DNA of 64,000 bases from Candidatus Moraniibacteriota bacterium (GTDB taxonomy: Bacteria > Patescibacteriota > Minisyncoccia > Moranbacterales > UBA1568). This document shows, piece by piece, positions 1,508-62,880 of this stretch. The DNA is taken from NCBI GenBank assembly GCA_049290235.1, contig JBATNG010000045.1, forward strand, positions 12,717 through 76,716. Direction: 5' to 3'. The position numbers were made by a program, and so were the translations under genes. The number at the start of each line of letters is the position of its first letter. Positions within the stretch are counted from its first letter, which is position 1. The notes beneath the pieces were generated by a model that made no database searches, was not told the DNA's origin, and saw only the letters and a program-made list of their open reading frames with translations.

Positions 1508-3598
1508 ATGTCACTCGAAGTCGTGCTCGCGGTCGCCGTACTCATGCTCATCTGTATTGGCACGTATTTTGTCGCCGGCCGCTTGAAATTGCCGTATACA
1601 GTGCTGCTCGTCATCGTCGGCTCTATCCTGGTGCCACTCACGCATTTTGCATTCTTTCATTTCATCAAAAGTTTCGAACTGACTCCCGAGCTCCTCTTCT
1701 TTGTCTTTCTGCCGGTGCTCATCTTTGAGTCGGCCTACAACATGAACATGCGTGAGATGGCCGAAAATGTCCGATCGATCTCGTGGCTGTCAGTTGTGAG
1801 TCTTGTCGTTTCTGCCTTTTTCGTGGCGTTCGCGCTTTTCTGGGGACTCAAGCTTATCGGTTTCCCGGTGCCGTTCATGGCGACGCTCGTTTTCGGGGCG
1901 CTCATCTCGGCGACGGATCCGGTGGCGGTGCTCGCATTGTTCAAGGAATTCGGCGTGCCGCGCCGTCTCTCACTCATCTTTGAGGGGGAGAGCTTGTTCA
2001 ATGATGGTACTTCGCTTGCTCTCTTTCTCATCGTCCTTGATGTAGCGATGGCCGGGTTCTCGGGACTCGGGAGCATACTCGAGGGTGTATTCATGTTTAC
2101 GACGATGGTGCTTGGTGGTGGCATTTTCGGGCTCTTGATGGGGTTCGTATTTTCCAAGATCATCGGTAAAGTGCAGGATAATGAGCACGTTGAAATCACG
2201 CTCACCATGCTCGTGGCGCATCTCACCTTCATACTCTCCGAACTCATTTCGCATCATCTCGTCCTCTTCGGCCAAGAAATCAGATTTTCGTCGATTATCG
2301 CGACCGTGATGGCGTCGATGGTCATCGGCAACTATGGTCGGTTCAAGATTTCGCCGCGCGTCGAGGAATACATGGAGAAGTTCTGGGGGTACTTCGCCTT
2401 CGTGGCAAACTCGCTCGTTTTCATTCTGATGGGACTACTCTTTGCTGATCTTCCGATTCATTTTGATCAATTTATCGTGCCGATGCTCATGACGGTTGTG
2501 GTGGTGATGATTGGCCGAGGACTGTCCATTTATCCAGTCGTGGCTATGGTGAATCGACTGAAGAAAGAAGATCAGATTCCGATGTCGTGGCAGCATCTGC
2601 TCGCGTGGGGGAGTCTCCGCGGAGCGCTGGCGGTCACGATGGTGCTTCTCATCCCGGATACACTTACACTTCCAGGTTGGAATTATGACTTTACCGTGAA
2701 GGAATTCATCGCGGCCATCACGATTGGCTGTATCTACTTCACTCTCCTCATCAAAGCGACCTCGATCGGAGCGATGATCAAGAAGATGAAACTGTCGGAT
2801 CTGACATCTCTCGAGACCGTGGAGTACCATGAGTGCTCGGCCCTGGTCTATCAGGAGGCGCTCGAGAAGCTCGCCGATTTCCATGAGAAAGGATACGTGA
2901 AGAGCGATGTGTTTGCCCGACTCAAACAAGAATACACGGAGCGTTACGAGAAGTCGGTAGCGGCCTGTCAGTCGCTCTTTACGGCGACCCCGAGCGACAT
3001 GAACCGAGCACTGCAGATGTATGCTCTCGGCATGGAAAAGCGCTTTCTCCGCGAGCTCTACGTCTATCAGGAGATTTCCGAATCGGAATACAAGGAGATT
3101 TTGAACAAGATCGCGATTCAGACGTCGCGAGTTGAGGAGGGAAGGGAGCAAGTATCGCATCATGCGGAGCGCTTCCGTCAGGACTGGTTCGAGACACTTG
3201 TCATGTGGCTGCGGAAGAAGTTCCGTCCAAAACCAGTCAAACAGGAAATGCTCGAGGAATACCGTTACTATCGCGCCCAGGAAGTGGTGCTGGCCAAGGT
3301 GCTCCGGCGTCTAAAGTCACTCTCGGAACGCTTTCCAGGGCTCTACGGAGATGAGGCATCGACAACAGCCGTCATCGCACTGTATGAGGGACTCCGGGTG
3401 GATGCAGAAAAAAAGCGCGACGCCGTAGCAGCAAAAATTGGGACGGAGCTCGCGTATTTGAACGAGTCATTCGGTCGCTATGCGCTTTTTAAGACCGAAG
3501 AATGGATGCTCGAGGAACTCTTGGAAAATGCCATGCTTCCGCGCAAAGTGGGGAATATGCTCTATAATGAGCTGAAGGACGAAGCCTACTCGATTTAG
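1508..3598 (+). CDS. CPA1-family Na+/H+ (cation:proton) antiporter with a large C-terminal cytoplasmic domain
   Basis: The ORF track starts at TTG 1490; the first ATG is 1508 (MSLEVVLAVAVLM...). About 400 aa form a polytopic membrane domain with Na_H_exchanger-like segments (ATDPVAVLALFKEFGVP, FEGESLFNDGTSLALF). About 300 aa of mainly helical soluble C-terminal domain follow. Confidence 0.85.
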   Translation: MSLEVVLAVAVLMLICIGTYFVAGRLKLPYTVLLVIVGSILVPLTHFAFFHFIKSFELTPELLFFVFLPVLIFESAYNMNMREMAENVRSISWLSVVSLVVSAFFVAFALFWGLKLIGFPVPFMATLVFGALISATDPVAVLALFKEFGVPRRLSLIFEGESLFNDGTSLALFLIVLDVAMAGFSGLGSILEGVFMFTTMVLGGGIFGLLMGFVFSKIIGKVQDNEHVEITLTMLVAHLTFILSELISHHLVLFGQEIRFSSIIATVMASMVIGNYGRFKISPRVEEYMEKFWGYFAFVANSLVFILMGLLFADLPIHFDQFIVPMLMTVVVVMIGRGLSIYPVVAMVNRLKKEDQIPMSWQHLLAWGSLRGALAVTMVLLIPDTLTLPGWNYDFTVKEFIAAITIGCIYFTLLIKATSIGAMIKKMKLSDLTSLETVEYHECSALVYQEALEKLADFHEKGYVKSDVFARLKQEYTERYEKSVAACQSLFTATPSDMNRALQMYALGMEKRFLRELYVYQEISESEYKEILNKIAIQTSRVEEGREQVSHHAERFRQDWFETLVMWLRKKFRPKPVKQEMLEEYRYYRAQEVVLAKVLRRLKSLSERFPGLYGDEASTTAVIALYEGLRVDAEKKRDAVAAKIGTELAYLNESFGRYALFKTEEWMLEELLENAMLPRKVGNMLYNELKDEAYSI

Positions 3599-8227: not shown

Positions 8228-8244
8228 ACATTCAAAACGATAGC

Positions 8245-8316
8245 TGGGGAGGATGGGATCGAACCATCGCATGGAGGCTTCAAAGGCCCCTGCCTTACCG
8301 CTTGGCTACTCCCCAA
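8245..8316 (-). tRNA. tRNA-Gln (anticodon UUG)
   Basis: The minus-strand sequence TGGGGAGTAGCCAAGCGGTAAGGCAGGGGCCTTTGAAGCCTCCATGCGATGGTTCGATCCCATCCTCCCCAG folds as a cloverleaf. It has a U1:A72 acceptor pair, D-loop AGCGGTAAG, anticodon loop CTTTGAA (TTG), T-arm GATGG-TTCGATC-CCATC and discriminator G. CCA is not encoded. The shape is close to E. coli tRNA-Gln. Confidence 0.9.
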
Positions 8317-8406: not shown

Positions 8407-10035
8407 CTAGGAACTCTCTTGAACGAGCTGGCCGCCGAGCATGTGGATCGCCTCGTCGATGATGGCGGGGCGTTCAGCTGAGGCGACAGGTGCCTCAGTC
8501 GCGGCATCTTTCTCCGTGGTGATGCTCCACGGCGTATGAAACCCCAAAATCGTAACAAAGGCCTGGTCGAGTGTCAATCGATTCGTCTTCTGTTCGAGTC
8601 GTTCCTTGTGAAAGGGATACTTCACTTGGAGCATGAGCTTCTCGTTTTTGATGATAGGTGTGGCGGTCGAGAGCGCGACGCCGAGGGAGGCATTGAGCCG
8701 GAGCGCATGCGTCATGATGGTCGGCCACTGACGGAGTGCGAGGCCGAGATCGACTGTAGCATCAGTCTCGGCCAGTTTTTCCTCGGCAGAGGACAGCACT
8801 GAGGTGGGGGTCAAAGCTGACTTCTTGGGTGCGGCGGGAGCAGCTAGAACGGACGGTGATCGCTCGGGAGTGACTACTTTCGGCTGGCTCACGGGCGCCG
8901 CCAGAGGCGTGACTTTCGGTGCAGCTGAAGCTATAACGGGCGGCTGTTCGCTTTGGATGAGCTTGACGAGTGCGATCTCGATCGGGAGTTCGGGGAGAGG
9001 GGAGACCTTGATGAGGCGATCCGCTTCCTGGAAACGCTCGAGGCACTCGACGATACGGCTGGAACCGAGGGTCGTGGCGAGTGTGAAGAGCTCGGCCTTT
9101 TCTTCTTTCGTGAAATCATCGATGAGTTTCTCCGCTGTTGCCCTATCGACGGATGCGAAGAGGAGCTTGCGGCAGTATTCAAGCAGCGACAGGGTGAATC
9201 CGGCGAGCTGGGCCCCCGTGTCTCTCAATTCTGCGACGGTCGCGAAGGCACGTGTCAGATCGCGCGTGGCGATAGCACTGATGAGCGCATGATTGGCAGC
9301 CAGGGTCGTCGTCCCGAGGAGGAGGGCGACGCGGGCCGCATCGATCGGGGACTCTTCGAGCGTCGCGATCTGAGTGAAGAGCACCTCGGCATCGCGCATA
9401 CCACCTTGGGCGGTGCGGGCGATCAAGGTGAGGGCGTCCTTTTCAACCTTAAGTTTTTCAGCCTTGGCAATTTTCTCGAGTTTCTGCACGATCATCTCCA
9501 CGGGGAAGCGTCGGAGATCGAGGCGGAGCGTGCGGGAGAGGATGGTCTCTGGGACTTTGGCGGCGTTGGTGGTGGCGAGGACAAAGACGACATGGTCCGG
9601 CGGTTCTTCAAGTGTCTTCAAGAGGGCATTCCAAGCACCGATGGAGAGCATGTGGGCCTCATCAATGATATAGACTTTGTGGCTCCCGAGGACGGGTGCA
9701 CTGGTGACGGTTTCGCGGAGTTCGCGGATATTGTCGACACCGGTATGTGAGGCGGCATCGATCTCGATGATGTCGAGCGATCGACCGTCAGTGAACGCGA
9801 GGCAATGCGGACACTCGCCGCAGGGCTCGAAACTGTTCCGATTCGAACAGTTGAGGGCCTTGGCGAAGAGGCGCGCCAAAGTCGTCTTGCCGGTGCCGCG
9901 CGGGCCAGTGAAGAGAAACGCATGGGCGAGCTTGTCGGTGAGGAGACTCTGGGTGAGGACGGTGACCGCGGTATCTTGGCCGATGACGTCTTTGAAACGG
10001 AGCGGGCGGTATTTACGGTAAAAGGTTTCGGACAT
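8407..10035 (-). CDS. dnaX: DNA polymerase III subunit gamma/tau
   Basis: 542 aa. RYRPLRFKDVIGQ...AFLFTGPRGTGKTTLARLFAKALNC...CGECPHC (Zn module)...YIIDEAHMLS...SRT(L) box motifs. Confidence 0.95.
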   Translation of the reverse strand: MSETFYRKYRPLRFKDVIGQDTAVTVLTQSLLTDKLAHAFLFTGPRGTGKTTLARLFAKALNCSNRNSFEPCGECPHCLAFTDGRSLDIIEIDAASHTGVDNIRELRETVTSAPVLGSHKVYIIDEAHMLSIGAWNALLKTLEEPPDHVVFVLATTNAAKVPETILSRTLRLDLRRFPVEMIVQKLEKIAKAEKLKVEKDALTLIARTAQGGMRDAEVLFTQIATLEESPIDAARVALLLGTTTLAANHALISAIATRDLTRAFATVAELRDTGAQLAGFTLSLLEYCRKLLFASVDRATAEKLIDDFTKEEKAELFTLATTLGSSRIVECLERFQEADRLIKVSPLPELPIEIALVKLIQSEQPPVIASAAPKVTPLAAPVSQPKVVTPERSPSVLAAPAAPKKSALTPTSVLSSAEEKLAETDATVDLGLALRQWPTIMTHALRLNASLGVALSTATPIIKNEKLMLQVKYPFHKERLEQKTNRLTLDQAFVTILGFHTPWSITTEKDAATEAPVASAERPAIIDEAIHMLGGQLVQESS

Positions 10036-12889: not shown

Positions 12890-14167
12890 ATGGCCGAATT
12901 TTTTTACAACCTGTTCACGATCGCTTCCGTGGCGAGTGATGTGTGGTTCTATATCATCCCATTCGTCTTCTATCCGGTTTTCATGTTCCTCTGGATGGAC
13001 AGTCGGAATGATATATTTGGCAGCAAGATCGAGTGGGTGCTGCTCGAGATCATCGCGCCGAAATTGTTGGAGAAGAGTCCACACCCGATGGAGCTGATTT
13101 ATTCCGGGTTTGCTGGAGTGATCAAGACGTCATCCGCGTATGAGGAATTCATCCTGGGAGAATTACCGGTCACGTTTTCACTCGAACTCGTGAGTACTGA
13201 GGGGAAAGTACACATGTACATCCGGACGCAGAAAGCCTTCCGCAATCTCGTCGAAGCTCATTTTTACGCGCAGTACCCGGATGTCGAGATTGTCGAAGCG
13301 GAGGATTATGCGAAACAGGTGCCGCGGACGGTTCCCAACAAGGACTGGGATTTGTGGGGGACGGAGTTCAAACTCCTCAAGCCCGATCTCTATCCGATAC
13401 GGACCTATAAATTTTTCGAAGAATCGGTGACCGGGAAAATGCTCGACCCGATGGCGGGGTTGATTGAAACCATGGGCAAGCTCGGTCCGGGCCAGCATCT
13501 CTGGCTACAATTCCTCGCGACACCGGTGAAAGAAGACTGGGGGCCCAAGAAAGGTGCGTTGACCATCGAAGAATTTCTCGGTCATGAGGAAGTGGAGAGC
13601 CCGGGGATTTTCGCGCGTGTTTGGCATGACTTGGCGGATGTCTTTCATAATCTCTTCTCCGGCCTGATGGGGAGCGAGTTGACGTGGACCAGTCAGGAGG
13701 AAGCGGCCAAAGCCGAAGAGCAACCCGTCGAATTCCGGCTCACCCCCGGACAGAAGGATATCCTGAAAGCACTCGAGAGTAATATCGGAAAACCGATGTT
13801 CAAAATCAAGATGCGTCATATTTATCTCGGGAAGAAAGAACATTTTTCTAAAGCGACCGGCGTGTCGGCGTTCATCGGGGCGATCAAACAGTTCAATGAT
13901 CTCTCGATGAACAGTATGATCCCGGATGATATGACGAAGACCTATGCGAGCTATGTCATGGTCGAACCGCGCCTCCGGTATCGGCAGCGGCGGCTTTTCC
14001 GGCGGTACATCACACGCGATACTGATCCTCAGGAGAACCGTTTTATGTTTTCGTCTGAGGAAATGGCGACGATCTACCACCTCCCCGACATGCAGGTACT
14101 CGCTCCGTCGCTCTCTCGCGTGATGACGAAGCGAGGTGGCGCGCCGGGCAATTTACCGGTACAATGA
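12890..14167 (+). CDS. hypothetical membrane-anchored protein (partner of the downstream T4CP-like ATPase)
   Basis: 425 aa. Hydrophobic N-terminus (NLFTIASVASDVWFYIIPFVFYPVFMFLWM) predicts 1-2 TM helices. The remainder is soluble with no recognised domain. It is co-directional with, and 74 nt upstream of, the coupling-protein-like gene. Confidence 0.5.
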   Translation: MAEFFYNLFTIASVASDVWFYIIPFVFYPVFMFLWMDSRNDIFGSKIEWVLLEIIAPKLLEKSPHPMELIYSGFAGVIKTSSAYEEFILGELPVTFSLELVSTEGKVHMYIRTQKAFRNLVEAHFYAQYPDVEIVEAEDYAKQVPRTVPNKDWDLWGTEFKLLKPDLYPIRTYKFFEESVTGKMLDPMAGLIETMGKLGPGQHLWLQFLATPVKEDWGPKKGALTIEEFLGHEEVESPGIFARVWHDLADVFHNLFSGLMGSELTWTSQEEAAKAEEQPVEFRLTPGQKDILKALESNIGKPMFKIKMRHIYLGKKEHFSKATGVSAFIGAIKQFNDLSMNSMIPDDMTKTYASYVMVEPRLRYRQRRLFRRYITRDTDPQENRFMFSSEEMATIYHLPDMQVLAPSLSRVMTKRGGAPGNLPVQ

Positions 14168-14241
14168 TGAACACTCCAGTCGTCCTGCTCGGGAGGGTTT
14201 GCGGGTTATAAAGATCAACGCATCTTATTTATCAGAGAAAT

Positions 14242-16377
14242 ATGTCAGAGCTCGATACCAATCCGATCACCGTCTTTGCCAAGACTAATTTCCGAAATCA
14301 GGAGCGAGTTTTCGGAATCAAGGCGGATGATCGCCGTCGGCATATGTATATCCTGGGAAAGACGGGTATGGGCAAGACGAACTTGCTCGAGAATCTGGCT
14401 ATCCAGGATATCCAGCAGGGGCATGGAATCTGTTTCATCGATCCGCACGGTGATGTCGCTCTGAAACTCATCAAGGCGATCCCACCGGAACGTATCAACG
14501 ACGTGATTTATTTCGACCCGGCAGACCAGCATTTTCCGATTGCTTTTAATGTGCTCGAGCAGGTGGGTGCCGACCAGCGTTCAGTCGTCGCATCCGGCCT
14601 TGTCAGTGTTTTTAAGAAAATCTGGGCGGATTCGTGGGGTCCGCGACTTGAATATATCCTCCGCAATGCCATTCTTGCATTGCTCGAATATCCTGGTGCG
14701 ACACTGCTCGGCGTGATGCGCATCCTCGTCGATAAATCGTATCGTGAGCGTGTGATGGAAAAGGTGACGGATCCAGTCGTGAAACAATTCTGGACCGTCG
14801 AATTCGCTGGATGGAATGAGCGTGTGCTTCAAGAAGTCATCTCACCGATTCAGAACAAGGTCGGACAGTTCACGTCCAATAGTTTGATCAGAAATATCAT
14901 CGGACAGCCGACAAGTGCGTTTGACGTGCGGAAAATCATGGACGAGCGGAAGATCCTGATTATGAATCTCGCCAAGGGCAAGATCGGCGAGGACTCGACC
15001 GCACTCCTCGGTGCCATGATGGTCACGAAGATCCAGCAGGCCGCGATGAGCCGAGTCGATACTGTCGAAGAAGACCGGAAGGATTTTTATCTCTATATCG
15101 ACGAGTTTCAGAATTTCGCTACTCTTTCATTTGCGAATATCCTGTCGGAGGCGCGCAAGTACCGACTCTCTCTTATTCTCGCAAATCAGTACATCACCCA
15201 GTTCGAAGAAGAGATTCGTGATGCAATTTTTGGTAACGCTGGGACGATTATATCTTTTCGAGTCGGGGCCATGGATGCAGAGTTTCTCGAGAAGGAATTT
15301 GAGCCTGTGTTCATGTTGAATGATATGGTCAACCTGCCCAAATATCAGATTTATCTGAAGCTCATGATTGATGGGATTGCCGGGGATGCGTTTTCGGCGA
15401 CGACTTTACCGCCAATTCTCGTCGAAACAGAAGGTATCGATGAGAAAGTGATCGCAGTGACCCGCGAACGCTATGCATCCTCGCGAGAAGAAGTGGAGGA
15501 AAAGATCCGGCGTTGGACGGGCATGCTTACGGACGAAGAGAAACAAGCTCTCCGTGCCCCCGTGCCAGTTTCCTCAGCTCCGCGACCGTCGTCTGCCCGG
15601 CCGACTCAACGTACCGCCACAGTCGTTACCCGTCCAGCTGTCCGTGAACGGGTCCCGGCGCATGGGACCGAGAGTATTGTAAAGAGTCGTGACCGGGCGA
15701 CTGATGTCGCGACGCCGCAGCCTGTCACCCAGCCGATCGCGCCGCAGCCGATCAGAGTGAAAGAACCCCAATCTCCAGACGTGGTAACGAAACCAAAGGC
15801 GATCACTGAAGCCATCTCAACACCAACCGCTCCCTTGGTCACTGCTCAATTTGAAAAACCGTCCGTCAGTAAATCTCCAGCACCCGAGGTGGTACCGGTG
15901 GTGATGGCGCCATCTCCGAAGCCAGCGGTCGTACCAGCGATTGAGACGTTTGAAGCTGCAGAGGGAACGCTCGCAACCGAGGCGCCGGTCGAGATCCCTG
16001 AGAAAGTATTGTATCCCGCTGTTTGCGCGACCTGTAGCCTAGAGATCGAAGTCCCTTTTGTACCCGATGCTTCGCGTCCGACTTTTTGTAAGGATTGTCT
16101 GCGCGACTACCAGCGGGCTGTCGCACGGGAACGAAACCAGATAGCTGGGAAACCTGTGGTTGCTGGTGCTTCATCGGCTGAGCCGATACACGAGCAGCCC
16201 CGACGCACGACGGAACACCGTTCCTACGTCCCTGCCCAATATCCTCTGCGGCTTTCCCAGGCGCAATACATCGAACCCAAGAAATTCAAATCGCTCCGCC
16301 GTAAGCCCGATATCAATGTGAGCGCTGTGCGTGCGCTCATCGACGAGGCACGGCAGGGAAAAGACGAGGAGGCTTGA
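14242..16377 (+). CDS. type IV coupling protein-like ATPase (TrwB/TraD/VirD4 family P-loop NTPase) with Pro/Ala/Thr-rich linker and C-terminal zinc-ribbon
   Basis: Walker A ILGKTGMGKTNLL. ICFIDPHGD resembles the IVDPNGD motif of TrwB-type coupling proteins. Walker B with a TraG-D_C-like segment: YLYIDEFQNFATLSFANILSEARKYRLSLILANQYITQFEEEIRDAIFGNAGTIISFRVG. No N-terminal TM segments. The C-terminal 280 aa are low-complexity (P/A/T/V-rich), then CATCSLEIEVPFVPDASRPTFCKDCLRDYQ (CxxC...CxxC). Confidence 0.7.
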   Translation: MSELDTNPITVFAKTNFRNQERVFGIKADDRRRHMYILGKTGMGKTNLLENLAIQDIQQGHGICFIDPHGDVALKLIKAIPPERINDVIYFDPADQHFPIAFNVLEQVGADQRSVVASGLVSVFKKIWADSWGPRLEYILRNAILALLEYPGATLLGVMRILVDKSYRERVMEKVTDPVVKQFWTVEFAGWNERVLQEVISPIQNKVGQFTSNSLIRNIIGQPTSAFDVRKIMDERKILIMNLAKGKIGEDSTALLGAMMVTKIQQAAMSRVDTVEEDRKDFYLYIDEFQNFATLSFANILSEARKYRLSLILANQYITQFEEEIRDAIFGNAGTIISFRVGAMDAEFLEKEFEPVFMLNDMVNLPKYQIYLKLMIDGIAGDAFSATTLPPILVETEGIDEKVIAVTRERYASSREEVEEKIRRWTGMLTDEEKQALRAPVPVSSAPRPSSARPTQRTATVVTRPAVRERVPAHGTESIVKSRDRATDVATPQPVTQPIAPQPIRVKEPQSPDVVTKPKAITEAISTPTAPLVTAQFEKPSVSKSPAPEVVPVVMAPSPKPAVVPAIETFEAAEGTLATEAPVEIPEKVLYPAVCATCSLEIEVPFVPDASRPTFCKDCLRDYQRAVARERNQIAGKPVVAGASSAEPIHEQPRRTTEHRSYVPAQYPLRLSQAQYIEPKKFKSLRRKPDINVSAVRALIDEARQGKDEEA

Positions 16378-16551
16378 TTCCCTGAGAGCCGATTCAATTT
16401 CTCAACGCTAATAAAGGGCAGAAACAAGCGCTTGTCTCATAAAATATCCAGATTTTTGTTGAAAACATCTCAGGGCTCGTTGGGTTATCGTGATAGCCCA
16501 CCCTGCCCGAAATGCTACGCATACCGTTGCAGGCGGGCTCACTTTTCGATT

Positions 16552-16606
16552 TTTTCATCTCACAATCTGAATATTTTCTCGAGACATGAGATCTTGAACA
16601 GGCTCT
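16552..16606. repeat. intergenic repeat copy (half-copy of the MITE-like element at 54339-54526)
   Basis: 52/54 nt identical to the reverse complement of 54341-54394. It contains the 19-nt motif GAGATCTTGAACAGGCTCT, which also forms the terminal inverted repeats of the 54.3-kb element. Confidence 0.6.
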
Positions 16607-16682
16607 CTGATTCTGATAGTCTGATCAACCCCAGGATTTCGGCGTCTGTTTGATAACCCTTCTTGCCGGTAATTGGTATTCG

Positions 16683-21978: not shown

Positions 21979-22737
21979 ATGCTCTTTCGGCGGGTGTTCG
22001 TGATTTCGCGTCGCATCAGTCGTCGTGTCGGACGGCTATTGCCAGCGCCAGGGAATCTGTCGCCGAAAAAAGCGCTCTATGCCTCGCTCTTCGCGGGGGT
22101 GAGTTTCGGCATGGTGTCGATGTCGGTCATCCAGGATGTGAGCGGAGATGAAGCCAATGCGGGTTCGCCGGCACCGGTGGCGGCCGTGGCTGAGTCGGAT
22201 GAAACCTCGAAAATCGCCAAAGAACTCTCCGAAGAGAAGAAGAAGTATGATCCGAATGACGATCTCTTTCTCCAGTTCTTCAGCGAGGCTGAGAAGGAGG
22301 AATACCGCGATCAGATCCAGGAGCTCGTCAAAGGCTATCCGATCGAAGACATGCTGCCGTACATCCTCGAGAAAGACCGGATCGTGGCAGCTTTCCTCAT
22401 CGGTATCGGCAAGAAAGAGAGCAATTGGGGGAAACGGGTCCCGGTGCTCGATGGTCAGGACTGCTTCAATTACTGGGGCTATCGGGGGGTGCGGCGATTG
22501 ATGGGAACAGGTGGGCATACCTGTTTCAATAGCCGCAAAGACGCGGTCGATACGGTCGCACTTCGGATCGAGTCGCTCATCTACTCGTCCAAAATCGACA
22601 CCCCGGCCAAGATGATTATCTGGAAGTGCGGCTACAGCTGTGACGGCCACTCTCGAGAGAGCGTCCGGAAATGGATTGCCGACGTGGACATGTATTTCAA
22701 GGAGTTGAACCAAGCTGAGGGTGGTCCGATCGATTAG
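21979..22737 (+). CDS. secreted Cys-containing protein, paralog 1 (possible lysozyme-like/Rpf-like fold), start uncertain
   Basis: The C-terminal 150 aa align with the downstream paralog: KGYPIE.M.P.I.E.DR..A.LIGI.KKESNWGKRVP...DCFNYWGY.G...GH.CF...IWKCG.SC..HS.ESVRKWI.DVD.YF. The ATG at 21979 has GGTGGA 9 nt upstream and yields an Arg-rich n-region followed by the hydrophobic ALYASLFAGVSFGMVSMSVI. The ATG at 21748 is possible but gives Arg-rich junk. Confidence 0.55.
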   Translation: MLFRRVFVISRRISRRVGRLLPAPGNLSPKKALYASLFAGVSFGMVSMSVIQDVSGDEANAGSPAPVAAVAESDETSKIAKELSEEKKKYDPNDDLFLQFFSEAEKEEYRDQIQELVKGYPIEDMLPYILEKDRIVAAFLIGIGKKESNWGKRVPVLDGQDCFNYWGYRGVRRLMGTGGHTCFNSRKDAVDTVALRIESLIYSSKIDTPAKMIIWKCGYSCDGHSRESVRKWIADVDMYFKELNQAEGGPID

Positions 22738-22943: not shown

Positions 22944-23699
22944 ATGCGTATTTTCCGGGGAGTTTCGGTCGTCTGGCAGCGCAAGAATCAAGGTCGAATA
23001 CTCCAACCTTGCCAGGCCCTCAGCCTCGTTGGTCTGTTGTTTCTTTCCTTTAGTCCGGTAGCAGTCGGGTCAAGTAATCCAGACACGGACGTGCAGCCGA
23101 ATTCCGCGAGTCGTCAGGTGAGTCTCTGTGATTGGCAGCGGGACTATGACTTCTTCACCGATACGGCGAAGACAGAGAAAGTCGAGTCGTCACCCTGCGA
23201 ACAAGTATTCCCTCAGTCGGCGGGATCCAGGAGTGCCGACTCGTCACAGGAGAAGACAGTGAGCCATGAAAAAAAAGCGTTCGAGGCCGAGCTCCGAGCC
23301 ATCGTCAAGGGCTACCCGATCGAAGTGATGGTCCCTGTGATTGCGGAGTATGATCGGGACATCGCGGGTCTCATCGTCGGTATCGCCAAGAAAGAGAGTA
23401 ATTGGGGCAAACGCGTCCCGCGGACATCCGGCGGGGACGACTGTTTCAATTATTGGGGGTACAAAGGGGCAGGCGCGCGCGGTGTCGCGATGGGGCATGG
23501 CTGTTTCGGCGAATCAGCGGAGGCGGTGCACGCGATCGGTGGTCGATTACAAGAGCTCACGCGACTTCGGCAGACGAGCGAACCAGCCAATTTGACCATC
23601 TGGAAATGTGGTTCGTCTTGCGCGAGTCATTCGCCTGAAAGCGTCCGGAAGTGGATCTCGGATGTCGACTTGTATTTCCGCGCCATCGCTCGGAAATGA
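22944..23699 (+). CDS. secreted Cys-containing protein, paralog 2
   Basis: 251 aa. Signal-peptide-like ILQPCQALSLVGLLFLSFSPVAVGSS. It shares the KGYPIEVMVPVIAEYDRDIAGLIVGIAKKESNWGKRVP...DCFNYWGYKG...GHGCF...IWKCGSSCASHSPESVRKWISDVDLYF core with paralog 1. Confidence 0.6.
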   Translation: MRIFRGVSVVWQRKNQGRILQPCQALSLVGLLFLSFSPVAVGSSNPDTDVQPNSASRQVSLCDWQRDYDFFTDTAKTEKVESSPCEQVFPQSAGSRSADSSQEKTVSHEKKAFEAELRAIVKGYPIEVMVPVIAEYDRDIAGLIVGIAKKESNWGKRVPRTSGGDDCFNYWGYKGAGARGVAMGHGCFGESAEAVHAIGGRLQELTRLRQTSEPANLTIWKCGSSCASHSPESVRKWISDVDLYFRAIARK

Positions 23700-52266: not shown

Positions 52267-53229
52267 ATGAATTCTATCAAGAAAGTCCTCATTGCACAGC
52301 CGCACGGGTTTTGTGCGGGGGTCGCTCGAGCGGTGAAGGCGGTGGAGGATACGCTGGCGATATTCGGTGCGCCGGTGTATGTGAAGCATGAGATCGTCCA
52401 CAACAAGCATGTGGTCGATGCGATCACGAAGCAAGGCGCGATCACGGTCGAAACACTCGAGGAAGTGCCGGAGGGTTCGGTGGTCATCTTCTCCGCCCAC
52501 GGTTCGCCGCGCGCTCATTATGAGGTAGCCCGAGAGCGCCAGCTCCATCTCATCGATGCGACCTGTCCGCTGGTGACCAAAGTTCACCTCGAAGTGTTGC
52601 GTTTCATCAAGGAAGGCTATGGGGTCGTGTACATCGGCCACCGCGGTCATATCGAGGGTGTCGGGGTGCTCGGTGAAGCGCCAGGTGTCAGTATTCCGGT
52701 GGTTGAGACGGTCGCAGATGCTGAAGCTTTGACGCTCCCTGAAAGTGAAAAGATGGTCTATCTCACGCAGACGACCCTCTCTATCGATGAGACCCAAGAC
52801 GTCATCGCGGCACTCCGAAAGAAATATCCCCAGATCGTCGCTCCGCCGCTTGAAGATATCTGCTATGCGACAACCAATCGCCAGGAGGCAGCCAAAGCAC
52901 TCGCAAAGACCGTCCCCGTCGTGATCGTCGTCGGATCGGTGACCTCGTCCAACTCCAATCGTTTACGCGAGACGGCCGAGCAAGCCGGTGCCCGGGCCTA
53001 CCTGGTTGATGATGCGAGCGACCTTGAAGCCGCGTGGTTTGATGGCGTTTCAATAGTTGGCGTGACTGGTGGGGCGAGTGCACCCGAGGATCGGATCCAG
53101 ACTGTGATCGACTACTTCACCGGACAAGGGGCGGTCGCCGAACGATTCTCGGTGAAGGAAGAAAAGATGTTCTTCGCGGAACCGGTGGAACTCATGCAGA
53201 TCCGTCGAGAGAGAGCAGCGAAGGTATGA
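52267..53229 (+). CDS. ispH: 4-hydroxy-3-methylbut-2-enyl diphosphate reductase
   Basis: PHGFCAGVARAV, SAHGSP, DATCPLVTKVH, TNRQEAAKALA and GSVTSSNSNRL track E. coli IspH throughout, including the three cluster-ligating Cys. Confidence 0.9.
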   Translation: MNSIKKVLIAQPHGFCAGVARAVKAVEDTLAIFGAPVYVKHEIVHNKHVVDAITKQGAITVETLEEVPEGSVVIFSAHGSPRAHYEVARERQLHLIDATCPLVTKVHLEVLRFIKEGYGVVYIGHRGHIEGVGVLGEAPGVSIPVVETVADAEALTLPESEKMVYLTQTTLSIDETQDVIAALRKKYPQIVAPPLEDICYATTNRQEAAKALAKTVPVVIVVGSVTSSNSNRLRETAEQAGARAYLVDDASDLEAAWFDGVSIVGVTGGASAPEDRIQTVIDYFTGQGAVAERFSVKEEKMFFAEPVELMQIRRERAAKV

Positions 53230-54341
53230 AACTGGCTATTCAAGCGAGCGATCTCGACCATGCCCGGATCGATGGGACCCGGGTCTATGTCCGTGAATTA
53301 CTCAGGCGTTTTGGTACTTTTTCGCCAGAAACAGAGTATGACATCTACCATCGGGGGACCTTCAATCCTTTGCTTGCCCCACCAGATCTCCTCAATTACC
53401 ACGTCAAAACGCTCCCGTTTCCGTACGCCTGGATGCAGACGCGATTCGCGTGGGAGATGTTCCGGTCCCGACCCGATCGGTTGTTTCTGCCGATTCAGGC
53501 GGCTCCAGTGATCTTGCCTCGTGGCTTGACGGTGACAGCGACCATTCACGACCTCGCTTTCCGGCGTTTTCCCGAAACCTTCCCACCGAGCCATCTCCGC
53601 AAACTGAACTTCATGCTCGACACGGTTGTGAGGCAGGCAGATCGGCTGATCGCGGTCTCTGAGTCTACGAAACGTGACTTGCTCGAGTTCTTTCCAACGC
53701 TCGATGCTAGCAAAGTTCAGGTGATTCACCACGGCTTCGATCGCGAGTTTTTCGGTCAGCAGCTTTCAGCTGAGACACTTTCTGCCATCCTCACAACCTA
53801 CCAGCTACAACCTACCAGCTATCTCCTGTATGTCGGAGCCCTGCAGCCACGCAAGAACCTCGTTCGCCTCATCCAGGCTTTTGAGCAGGCGAAAAAAACC
53901 TGCCCGGAGATGCAACTTGTGCTCGCTGGTGAACCGGCCTGGCTTTCCGAAAGTATTCTTGCGGCGAGAGCAGCGAGCCCTTTCAAAGACGATATCATCT
54001 TGACGGGACGTGTTTCGTTTGAGAATCTGCGCGCGCTCTACCAGGGTGCACGTCTCTTCGCTTTCCCGTCACTCTATGAGGGATTCGGTCTCCCGCTCCT
54101 TGAAGCTTTCGCGTCTGGCGTGCCGGTATTGACTGCCGATAATTCCAGCCTGCGCGAAGTAGCGGGTGACGGTGCGCTCTATGTCGATGCTAGGAATGAG
54201 GCTGATATCGCCGAAAAACTCAGCCAGTTGTGGAGTGATGTAGAGCTCCGTGATGCGCTCCGGGTGAAAGCGAATGCTGAACTTGCTCGATTTTCTTGGG
54301 ATCGGACCGCATGTGCGACACTTGATGTGATTCTCCGTTAG
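53226..54341 (+). CDS. GT4-family glycosyltransferase
   Basis: LLYVGALQPRKNLVRLIQAF...LVLAGEP...LFAFPSLYEGFGLPLLEAFASGVPVLTADNSSLREVAGD is the GT4/Glycos_transf_1 E-x7-E region. Confidence 0.8.
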   Translation: MKLAIQASDLDHARIDGTRVYVRELLRRFGTFSPETEYDIYHRGTFNPLLAPPDLLNYHVKTLPFPYAWMQTRFAWEMFRSRPDRLFLPIQAAPVILPRGLTVTATIHDLAFRRFPETFPPSHLRKLNFMLDTVVRQADRLIAVSESTKRDLLEFFPTLDASKVQVIHHGFDREFFGQQLSAETLSAILTTYQLQPTSYLLYVGALQPRKNLVRLIQAFEQAKKTCPEMQLVLAGEPAWLSESILAARAASPFKDDIILTGRVSFENLRALYQGARLFAFPSLYEGFGLPLLEAFASGVPVLTADNSSLREVAGDGALYVDARNEADIAEKLSQLWSDVELRDALRVKANAELARFSWDRTACATLDVILR

Positions 54342-54526
54342 AGCCTGTTCAAGATCTCATGTCTCGAGAAAATATTCAGATTACGAGATGAAAACCTTGA
54401 GAAGTGAGGAGGACTATCGAGATAATCCGACGAGCTTTGAGAGGTTTTCAGCCGAAAGCTGGTTATTTTATGAGACAAGCGGTCGGTTTCTGCTTTTTTT
54501 CCGCGTTGAGATATTGAACAGGCTCT
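54339..54526. repeat. MITE-like element with 19-bp terminal inverted repeats exactly filling a convergent intergenic gap
   Basis: Left end TAGAGCCTGTTCAAGATCTC (54339-54358). Right end GAGATATTGAACAGGCTCT (54508-54526), the reverse complement with one mismatch. The ends overlap the stop codons of both flanking genes. The left internal 35 nt plus the IR recur inverted at 16552-16606. A T7 run sits at 54494-54500. Confidence 0.55.
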
Positions 54527-54942
54527 TAGTGGTCAGCCGGGGAGGATTTGAAGAATAGCCACACTGCGAGTCCGTAGCCGGCGACGATAATCGGGATACT
54601 CCACCAGGGGAACCGGTAGTGAGCCAATGTGATGACACTCAGTCCGACGAGCCCTGCACCGACAAGCAATATGCGAGGATATGGCTGTTCGGTTTGTTCG
54701 TGCGATGGCTCGAGGAAGCGGCTGAGCCAGACCAAGAGACTGGTACCGAGGAGGAGCAAGAGCGCACATTTGACGAGTGACAAACGGGCGGTGACGAAGG
54801 TGGGGAGGACAACTTCAATCGCGTACAGTCCGGCAAAGGCGATCCAGCCGACGAAGACGGCATCGAAGAGGAGATTGGCGGCGATGGCGAGATGACCATC
54901 AGTCGCGTAGGTCTCGAGAGATTTTTTGAATGAGAGAGTCAT
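54526..54942 (-). CDS. hypothetical membrane protein
   Basis: 138 aa with 4 TM helices. No family recognised. Confidence 0.5.
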   Translation of the reverse strand: MTLSFKKSLETYATDGHLAIAANLLFDAVFVGWIAFAGLYAIEVVLPTFVTARLSLVKCALLLLLGTSLLVWLSRFLEPSHEQTEQPYPRILLVGAGLVGLSVITLAHYRFPWWSIPIIVAGYGLAVWLFFKSSPADH

Positions 54943-61684: not shown

Positions 61685-62880
61685 AAACCTGGCTCATCAA
61701 AATCGGGAAGGCCTGGAGTGTGATCCGGCGCGACGGATTAGTTCGGGGTGGGCGGCGGGTGCTGGAGGCATTCACGGCGCTCTTTGCTCATGTCGAGCCA
61801 GGCGATATCCTGTTCATCTCGGGCGGAGTGGGGGACAGTGCGCGCTATCGGACGCAGCATGTTGCCGAAGAACTTCGGCTACATGGTTTCCGGGCATCGG
61901 TCACCGTGCAGGATAACCCACGGCTCGTGTCGTACGCGGACCAGTTCCAGGTATTCGTCCTGCACCGCGTCCTCATGACTGTGGCAATCGCCCGGCTCAT
62001 AGCTCGGCTGAAAGAAGTTGGGAAGACAATTATTTTCGAGACCGATGATCTCGTGTACGATCCGGAGTTTCTCGTGCATATGGATTACTGGCATCAGATG
62101 AATGTGCTCGAGCGCAAGCTCTACGAGCACGGTGTCGGCGGCGAGATCCTGGCTGATCCATATGTGACGACAGCGACGACGACAACCGGCTTCCTCGCTG
62201 ACAAACTTCGAGAGAAAGGGAAGTCGGTCTATCTCGTGCCGAACCGACTGTCGCAGCAAGATGTGTTGTGGGCGGATGAAGCTTTGAAGAAGAATCACGA
62301 ATCACGAATCACGAATCACGAAGGAGAAAAAATTGTTCGTATGGGTTATCTCTCCGGCACGCCGAGTCACAACAAAGACTTTGCGACTATCACGCCCGCT
62401 CTCATCACGCTGTTTGAGAAGTATCCCGAGATGCGATTGGTGCTCGCAGGGCCGCTGGATACCGAAGACCGGCTCCAAGTGTATGCTGAGCGGATCGAGT
62501 GTCTGCCGTTTGTGCCACGGGCCAGACTCTTTGCCAACATTGCAACACTTGACATTAATCTCGCACCGCTTGAAATCGACAATCCGTTCTGTGAATCGAA
62601 ATCCGAATTGAAATTCTTTGAAGCAGGGATCGTCTCGGTGCCGACCGTGGCGGCTGCGACACGCACCTATTGTGAAGCGATCACCGACGGAACCGATGGC
62701 TTCGTCGCGGCGAACACAGATGAATGGGTAGCAAAGATCGGTCGACTCATCGCCGAGCCTGAGCTCCGCGCTCGGATCGGCCACGCCGCGCGCGAGACGG
62801 CCCTCGCACAGTATACCAACGCGAATGCCAAGAACGAGGCGTACTATGAGTTTCTGCGTTCCGTTATGAAACACGACTGA
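61681..62880 (+). CDS. glycosyltransferase (GT4-like C-terminal domain) containing an in-frame heptanucleotide repeat
   Basis: The C-terminal half (MGYLSGTPSHNKDF...RLVLAGP...FFEAGIVSVPTVAAATRTYCEAITDGTDGFVA) resembles the GT-B donor-binding domain. The AATCACG x4 repeat at 62293-62320 encodes NHESRITNHE. Confidence 0.65.
   Translation: MKTWLIKIGKAWSVIRRDGLVRGGRRVLEAFTALFAHVEPGDILFISGGVGDSARYRTQHVAEELRLHGFRASVTVQDNPRLVSYADQFQVFVLHRVLMTVAIARLIARLKEVGKTIIFETDDLVYDPEFLVHMDYWHQMNVLERKLYEHGVGGEILADPYVTTATTTTGFLADKLREKGKSVYLVPNRLSQQDVLWADEALKKNHESRITNHEGEKIVRMGYLSGTPSHNKDFATITPALITLFEKYPEMRLVLAGPLDTEDRLQVYAERIECLPFVPRARLFANIATLDINLAPLEIDNPFCESKSELKFFEAGIVSVPTVAAATRTYCEAITDGTDGFVAANTDEWVAKIGRLIAEPELRARIGHAARETALAQYTNANAKNEAYYEFLRSVMKHD
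62293..62320 (+). repeat. tandem heptanucleotide repeat (AATCACG)x4 inside the glycosyltransferase CDS
   Basis: Four perfect head-to-tail copies, 28 nt. The unit length is not a multiple of 3. Confidence 0.9.

Follow-up and report, generated by a model that had tools for sequence, protein, structure and literature searches.

A non-coding miniature element, probably mobilized by an IS630-family transposase, at the overlapping stop codons of two Moraniibacteriota genes

[quoted passage not shown] Several features taken together point in this direction: the two copies (185 and 220 nt) are non-coding and bounded by terminal inverted repeats (TIRs); a target duplication is seen, along with empty and filled versions of the same site; and the ends match those of an insertion sequence (IS) from another genome. 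The first-pass annotation of this DNA had already raised the idea of a non-autonomous miniature element, and the empty site in relatives, the 3-bp duplication, the dispersed family and the IS630-type element with the same ends bear it out. The element is an ordinary kind of MITE, belonging to a widespread and apparently unnamed family.

Copy A (54341–54525, plus strand, 185 nt, GAGCC...GGCTC) and copy B (16386–16605, minus strand, 220 nt) are recovered by nhmmer with a subfamily profile at E = 2e-49 and E = 6e-42, respectively; we take the strand starting GAGCC...CATGTC as the sense orientation. The profile detects exactly these two copies in the 64 kb of the window, within which the copies were counted, and none in the 20-kb syntenic loci of close relatives. 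Both the inverted-repeat and the end-pattern matches identify the left TIR of copy A as GAGCCTGTTCAAGATCTCA (54341–54359, plus strand) and its right TIR as the minus-strand sequence at 54507–54525, the reverse complement of which is GAGCCTGTTCAATATCTCA. The inverted-repeat search returned 20-nt arms with 95% identity for copy A; the outer 19-nt arms, AGAGCCTGTTCAAGATCTC at 54340–54358 and the reverse complement of AGAGCCTGTTCAATATCTC at 54508–54526, differ by one mismatch, just as first reported. The element proper runs from GAGCC to GGCTC, and the flanking A and T belong to the 3-bp TNA duplication; we set the boundary at 54341–54525 because the empty sites and 42 family members, both described below, show it. 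Copy B, which had initially been taken for an inverted half-copy near 16.5 kb, is in fact full length, with its own right end, AGAGCCGATTCAATTTCTC, at 16385–16403, when the minus strand is read downward from 16606. It lies between a gene for a TraG/HerA-like ATPase (14242–16377) and mnmA. The two copies align end to end, with the first 43 nt identical and an overall identity of ~84%; copy B additionally has a G+C-rich insertion of 36 nt (16503–16538, minus strand) that is absent from the 11 other members of the subfamily. The TIRs of both are 18–19 bp long with the consensus GAGCCTGTTCAA[G/T]AYCTC. Allowing up to two mismatches, the end pattern AGAGCCNNTTCAANNTCTC has four matches in the window, at 16385, 16588, 54340 and 54508, which are exactly the four ends of copies A and B; 0.25 matches are expected by chance and none of 100 shuffles reached four. 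The G+C content is 43% in the element and 54% in the window. Copy B lies within 2146 nt that are identical in a conspecific assembly (GCA_049663145.1), and the GT4 glycosyltransferase and MnmA proteins encoded in the window are 100% identical to proteins named by NCBI as being from a Candidatus Moraniibacteriota MAG.

Direct evidence for insertion comes from the site of copy A. Here, the gene for the GT4 glycosyltransferase (53226–54341, plus strand; 371 aa, the length seen in most element-free relatives) converges with an open reading frame (ORF) of 138 aa without a Pfam match (54526–54942, minus strand). The original observation that the element fills the gap between these genes with its ends touching both stop codons holds: the GT4 stop is the TAG at 54339–54341 and that of the 138-aa ORF is the TAA formed by the reverse complement of 54526–54528. 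In five relatives with GT4 proteins 80–81% identical (L003–L006, which are Logan contigs, and L007, which is GCA_049662085.1), the gene order is kept, the element is missing and the GT4 and 138/139-aa genes overlap by exactly 4 nt, the overlap being CTAG in L003 and TTAG in L007. The window reads ...cgTTA, immediately followed by GAGCC...GGCTC and then by TTAGtgg. Thus, relative to the empty sites, the added DNA amounts to a 185-nt element and a 3-bp duplication of TTA (54338–54340 on the left and 54526–54528 on the right). Because TTA is duplicated and the element begins with a G, both stop codons are rebuilt: for the GT4 gene, TAG is made up of the TA of the left duplication and the element's first G, and the right duplication, read on the opposite strand, supplies the TAA of the 138-aa ORF. 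The encoded proteins are as long as their counterparts in the relatives (371 aa for GT4 and 138 or 139 aa for its neighbor). The comparison of filled and empty sequences shows that copy A inserted where the stop codons of a convergent gene pair overlap by 4 nt (TTAG). In a genome that has hardly any space between genes, an insertion of this kind should be near-neutral, and copy A would thereby represent a transposon tolerated in a tightly packed genome by virtue of leaving both neighboring proteins unchanged in length and two overlapping stops rebuilt. Likewise, each end of a 237-nt family member from Parcubacteria (L026:3029–3271) abuts a stop codon, the ORFs concerned having 79 and 89 codons. 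Across the family, the stop codon of a flanking ORF overlaps the duplication in 14 of 42 elements; we judged this not clearly above the expectation for intergenic TNA sites and set aside a family-wide preference for stop codons.

The extent of the family emerged once a third copy had been found in L010, a related contig (JGI 3300045389), after which we scanned ~185,000 genomes with the pattern GAGCCTGTTCAAKAYCTCA. This matched 73 loci as against ~17 expected by chance (our own calculation over 1.2e12 positions), with ~40 matches forming inverted pairs that delimit elements of 124–237 nt. Among 42 elements, 29 are flanked by perfect 3-bp repeats (TAA in 14, TTA in 10, TGA in four and CAA in one), and 72 of the 84 flanks are of the form TNA. 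Among the unpaired matches, also 42 in number, 19 are preceded by TNA and the remaining 23 are close to the number expected by chance. While the TTA and TAA flanks would also fit a TA duplication, this reading is ruled out because four elements have perfect TGA/TGA flanks. The first-pass annotation had reserved a local duplication or a shared terminator for the case that further copies and target-site duplications were lacking; for the family as a whole both are present, and in the window TTA stands on either side of copy A, with the duplication of copy B being degenerate.

Going by the titles and labels of the MAG records, the family occurs in Patescibacteria, Parcubacteria, Peregrinibacteria and Moraniibacteriota, and further in several Gammaproteobacteria MAGs, Dyella, Brachymonas, Nitrosomonas, several Clostridia, Flavobacteriales and Bdellovibrionales. 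The internal sequences vary by host group and the ends are nearly the same. The presence of a single 19-bp end across Patescibacteria, Gamma- and Betaproteobacteria, Clostridia, Bacteroidota and others, as so labeled, points to one widely moving transposase lineage. The exact 20-mer GATCTCATGTCTCGAGAAAA, from the conserved left part of the element, had no match in genome contigs and a single chance match in an unrelated, A+T-rich metagenome contig; it missed the copy in L010 because this has one substitution within it. In plasmids, BLASTN found nothing that matched copy A or a family member from a gammaproteobacterium. A mini-element of ~40 nt comprising the left TIR and part of the right TIR (GAGCCTGTTCAAGATCTCAATCAGACCTTGAAACAGGCTC), preceded by TTA, was noted in a Nitrosomonas MAG (L079:5436–5475). 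Our literature searches, which did not cover ISfinder, found no paper naming the TIR or the family, and a search with the TIR string gave only primer lists; those on IS630 with TNA or 3-bp duplications and on MITEs in the CPR found nothing relevant to either subject. Reports of mobile elements from the CPR/Patescibacteria appear to be few.

The link to IS630 comes from a Clostridiales MAG. The locus L029:4783–6095 is bounded by the same TIRs (with two and four mismatches) and has TAA on both sides. Between these ends are two ORFs that are joined across a run of eight A and jointly match HTH_Tnp_IS630 (PF01710) and DDE_3 (PF13358). The protein scores 118.7 bits against the NCBIfam model NF033545 "IS630 family transposase" (cut-off 100), and its catalytic spacing, by our own count, is DD34E. 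The element is a single-gene IS of about 1.1 kb with TIRs. Its transposase gene is split by a MITE from the same family (162 nt, L029:5280–5441) with TTA flanks and also has an internal stop; because of these two lesions we regard this copy as dead. A second MITE from the same genome (L047) throws light on how the short elements arose: its nucleotides 1–77 align to the left end of the IS with 92% identity and nucleotides 73–132 align just downstream of the transposase gene with 83% identity, the two segments meeting at a shared TATAT. Such a junction is what an internal deletion at a microhomology leaves behind and, by these alignments, the MITEs in that genome are evidently internal-deletion derivatives of the L029 IS. 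The search for a cognate transposase that the first-pass annotation had proposed yielded an IS630-type enzyme in this Clostridiales MAG and none in the window.

Other candidates for the parent were rejected. The named plasmid IS630 elements are at best distant, the closest plasmid-borne relatives of the L029 transposase being 31–38% identical to it; the one with readable ends, L089, has different TIRs, ATATAGTC.... The 1241-bp pair in L022 is not flanked by TNA and its ORFs read as ordinary genes. In L083, L012 and L064, a by-eye reading of the translations gave no transposase-like ORF beside the TIR, and we interpret these as solo or decayed ends. Finally, L026 is the MITE of 237 nt mentioned above, one of whose TIRs has an indel.

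Briefly, we envisage cut-and-paste mobilization in trans by an IS630-type transposase encoded elsewhere in the lineage. Such an enzyme would bind the 18–23-bp TIRs, excise the element and insert it at a TNA trinucleotide by means of a 3-nt staggered cut, the repair of which would duplicate the TNA. A number of observations weigh against this account. The sole full-length element found is a decayed copy from a different phylum, with its A8 frameshift, internal stop and nested MITE, so that the connection to IS630 rests on one element. In accordance with the initial report of no transposase in the window, tblastn found no IS630-like coding sequence there or, L029 apart, in any of the other loci compared. 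There is no sign of present activity of the element, with the copies counted in the window only. The flanks of copy B (TGA and TCT on the plus strand) form no TNA repeat, and the phylum labels of the family hosts are those of the MAG records only. Moreover, the duplication of TNA departs from the canonical TA of IS630/Tc1-mariner (PMC8533490).

This last point speaks for a different parent. The bacterial groups known for 3-bp TNA duplications and GAG termini are IS5 (the IS1031 group) and PIF/Harbinger, and mobilization by a transposase of either kind would agree with the 72 TNA flanks, with termini that begin with GAG and with the canonical TA duplication of IS630. Indeed, the GAG ends and the TNA had at first led us to suspect parentage by IS5/IS1031, an idea dropped after L029 came to light: the protein encoded by the sole full-length element with such termini is of the IS630 family, the local MITEs are colinear with both its ends and no IS5-type gene was seen beside any TIR. 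We therefore consider an IS5- or Harbinger-like parent improbable, and mobilization by an IS630-family enzyme remains the reading that we favor.

A further alternative arises from the capacity of the element to fold. As a single strand, it forms an imperfect hairpin of roughly 45 bp that is broken by internal loops and bulges. The RNA fold check suggested at the outset gives copies A and B a minimum free energy of -78 kcal/mol, with z = -6.8 and z = -6.2, respectively. To this may be added the evidence from an alignment (A2) of 12 members of the subfamily from CPR genomes, namely copies A and B, L010, L034, L051, L071, L082, L081, L040, L011, L035 and L026, which was made by MAFFT and not fitted to structure. 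The consensus fold of its members consists of a single long hairpin, whose 43 pairs are 96% paired and include 13 that show compensatory changes; within the inner helix (columns 53–66 with 188–201), eight of 12 pairs covary. None of 500 column shuffles reached the observed values and sliding the partners lowers the pairing to 29–48%. The two strands are not equivalent: G-U type cells outnumber A-C type cells in A2 by 31 to 5 (15 pairs versus 5; our own count), and the GAGCC...CATGTC strand folds better than its complement in all 12 members, by 4–21 (mean 11) kcal/mol. The same bias is seen in 9/10 of the gammaproteobacterial subfamily (10 gammaproteobacterial and Nitrosomonas elements). All of these counts are drawn from related sequences and so are not independent. 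The asymmetry hints at selection on the single-stranded form, which is a lead and not a proof. Candidate reasons for the maintenance of the pairing are the symmetry needed for transposase binding, a single-stranded DNA or RNA form and an influence on the transcripts of the host.

A structured RNA gene or a cis-acting RNA module, such as a bidirectional terminator or stabilizer, spread by selection and not by transposition, would account for the strong hairpin, its conservation via compensatory changes, the better folding of one strand throughout the subfamily and two weak terminator-like sites within copy A. However, the duplications and the empty site show insertion; the same ends bound a transposase gene; the element has no Rfam match at gathering thresholds (Rfam recognizes nothing in the window except a tRNA at 8244–8315); and the terminator-like count of two is near chance, with 0.7 expected from shuffled sequences. 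Further, copies A and B are opposite in orientation relative to the transcription of their neighbors, because of which a role in host transcripts in one orientation is not indicated; a side effect of the hairpin on transcripts is possible. An RNA module is accordingly, in our estimation, even less likely than an IS5-type parent, and the REP-like module or shared terminator that had been entertained in the first-pass annotation does not explain the origin of the element, strong and conserved as its hairpin is. As for a local duplication of intergenic DNA in this genome without any mobility, the visibility of only two copies in 64 kb is what it would predict, but dozens of unrelated genomes and loci hold related elements that share these termini and have TNA flanks, and the insertion at site A is exact to the base, with a duplication, all of which makes this reading scarcely credible.

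The sequence of the element likewise gives no indication of coding capacity. A six-frame peptide query of both copies against the protein database produced no match, and while several frames are open, a frame-breaking indel separates copies A and B. A coding role for the 56-aa ORF at 54388–54558 was rejected, given that the differences between A and B are mostly non-synonymous (by-eye codon count over the part common to both copies), that the indel disrupts the reading frame and that other frames are open to the same degree. Copy A also has a sigma-70-like match (54397–54426; TTGAGA, an 18-nt spacer and GATAAT, 10/12), which faces the 138-aa gene in antisense and is not significant (one site versus 0.5 expected).

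Taken as a whole, these elements might form an undescribed branch of IS630, perhaps akin to TP36/Zator and transferred very widely, with 3-bp duplications of TNA in place of TA; strand-specific selection would favor a folded single strand of its MITEs, be it RNA or a transposition intermediate, and the MITEs would persist in the minimal genomes of the CPR as their TNA targets coincide with stop codons rebuilt by the duplication. We offer this composite proposal tentatively and regard it as rather doubtful in its entirety.

In contrast to the perfect duplication around copy A, the TGA (16383–16385) and TCT (16606–16608) that flank copy B on the plus strand do not match each other, the duplication being degenerate; CTG/CTG flanks would match only with the boundaries shifted by one base. 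Copy B is an older-looking second copy with a decayed duplication. A 185-nt copy occupies the exact position of copy B, in the same orientation, in L010 (L010:1711–1895; MnmA 83% identical), and an element-free spacer of 86 nt (9915–10000) is found in L008 and L009 (MnmA 92% and 89% identical). At the DNA level, L010 is 87–89% identical to L008/L009 and each of the three is 78–79% identical to the window (L010, 78%); the elements themselves are 89% (B and L010), 88% (A and L010) and 84% (A and B) identical. The flanks are imperfect at both filled sites, copy B and L010, and the empty site has no bases from the element termini. Together, the relationships of the site and the identities of the elements imply one of two histories: either an old element was lost in the line of L008 and L009, or there were two insertions at one spot. 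A Tc1-like excision footprint was considered and rejected, since the empty site (CATGTGA in the element orientation) holds no terminus bases.

Several side observations bear on the copies themselves. The 36-nt insertion of copy B forms its own stem-loop at the apex of the predicted hairpin, and L026 also has extra palindromic DNA at the tip, ~57 nt in length (about 3115–3175); the tip palindromes of these two family members may be nested small insertions or apical expansions. In L010, mnmA (L010:1976–3196) is called as 406 aa as against 381, with the call starting inside the MITE and being 25 codons too long; hence, the element can mislead gene callers. It also breaks short-read assemblies: the Logan contigs of SRR28060978 (the end of L001 and the start of L091) break exactly 30 nt inside the element (window positions 54370 and 16577). 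As 30 is k-1 for k=31, we attribute these to a graph break caused by the 43-nt stretch common to copies A and B; copy B alone explains the contig breaks at the element.

Elsewhere in the window, the region 12890–16377 encodes a DUF8128 protein followed by the 711-aa TraG/TrwB/HerA-like ATPase, which has a treble-clef zinc finger. This order, beside core genes, is kept in three related Moraniibacteriota contigs (L008–L010), which is odd for a conjugation-type ATPase. A 119-nt direct repeat with 75% identity (22325–22443 and 23302–23420, 977 nt apart) lies in two neighboring ORFs, and a short run of GAATCAC heptamers is found within an ORF at 62285–62326.

Among known systems, REP/BIME sequences are palindromes of 20–40 nt that are clustered and associated with the RAYT transposase; the element differs from them in its 185–220-nt length, its TIRs and duplications, and its single, dispersed copies. 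Zator reportedly makes 3-bp duplications, and its likeness and that of TP36, both IS630-related, to this family is limited to this feature, making it only a lead. In terms of clustering, the bacterial TP36 transposases and the eukaryotic Zator group with IS630 (PMC7386202). The likeness to IS630/Tc1-mariner (ITm) lies in the L029 transposase, with its HTH_Tnp_IS630 and DDE_3 domains and a score above the NF033545 cut-off; as a TA duplication is stated for the whole ITm group (PMC8533490), a TNA duplication would, if confirmed by experiment, extend the known integration geometry of IS630-type enzymes.

Of the described bacterial MITEs, Chunjie was rejected as a relative on account of its 9-bp direct repeats (PMC3184786). 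Nezha of cyanobacteria was recognized from the same kind of evidence, i.e., TIRs in common with an IS of another species, direct repeats at the flanks, stable folding, and orthologous sites both empty and filled, and differs in its host group and its size of 130–170 bp (PMC3184786). The Correia elements/NEMIS of Neisseria (100–160 bp) are likewise MITEs with TIRs that form long hairpins in transcripts and lie beside genes (PMC2229807, PMC3184786); they differ in having TA at the ends, other TIR sequences and known roles at the RNA level. RUP of Streptococcus pneumoniae is, like this family, small and non-coding, with TIRs matching an IS630-family IS, and is thought to be mobilized in trans. 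Compared by description, it is 107 bp long, targets TA and is known from that one species, whereas the present family spans 124–237 nt, duplicates TNA and occurs, by MAG labels, in many phyla. RUP is a MITE attributed to IS630-Spn1 and has been reported inserted in transposase genes (PMC2229807), a habit paralleled in this family by the MITE nested within the parent-type IS of L029.

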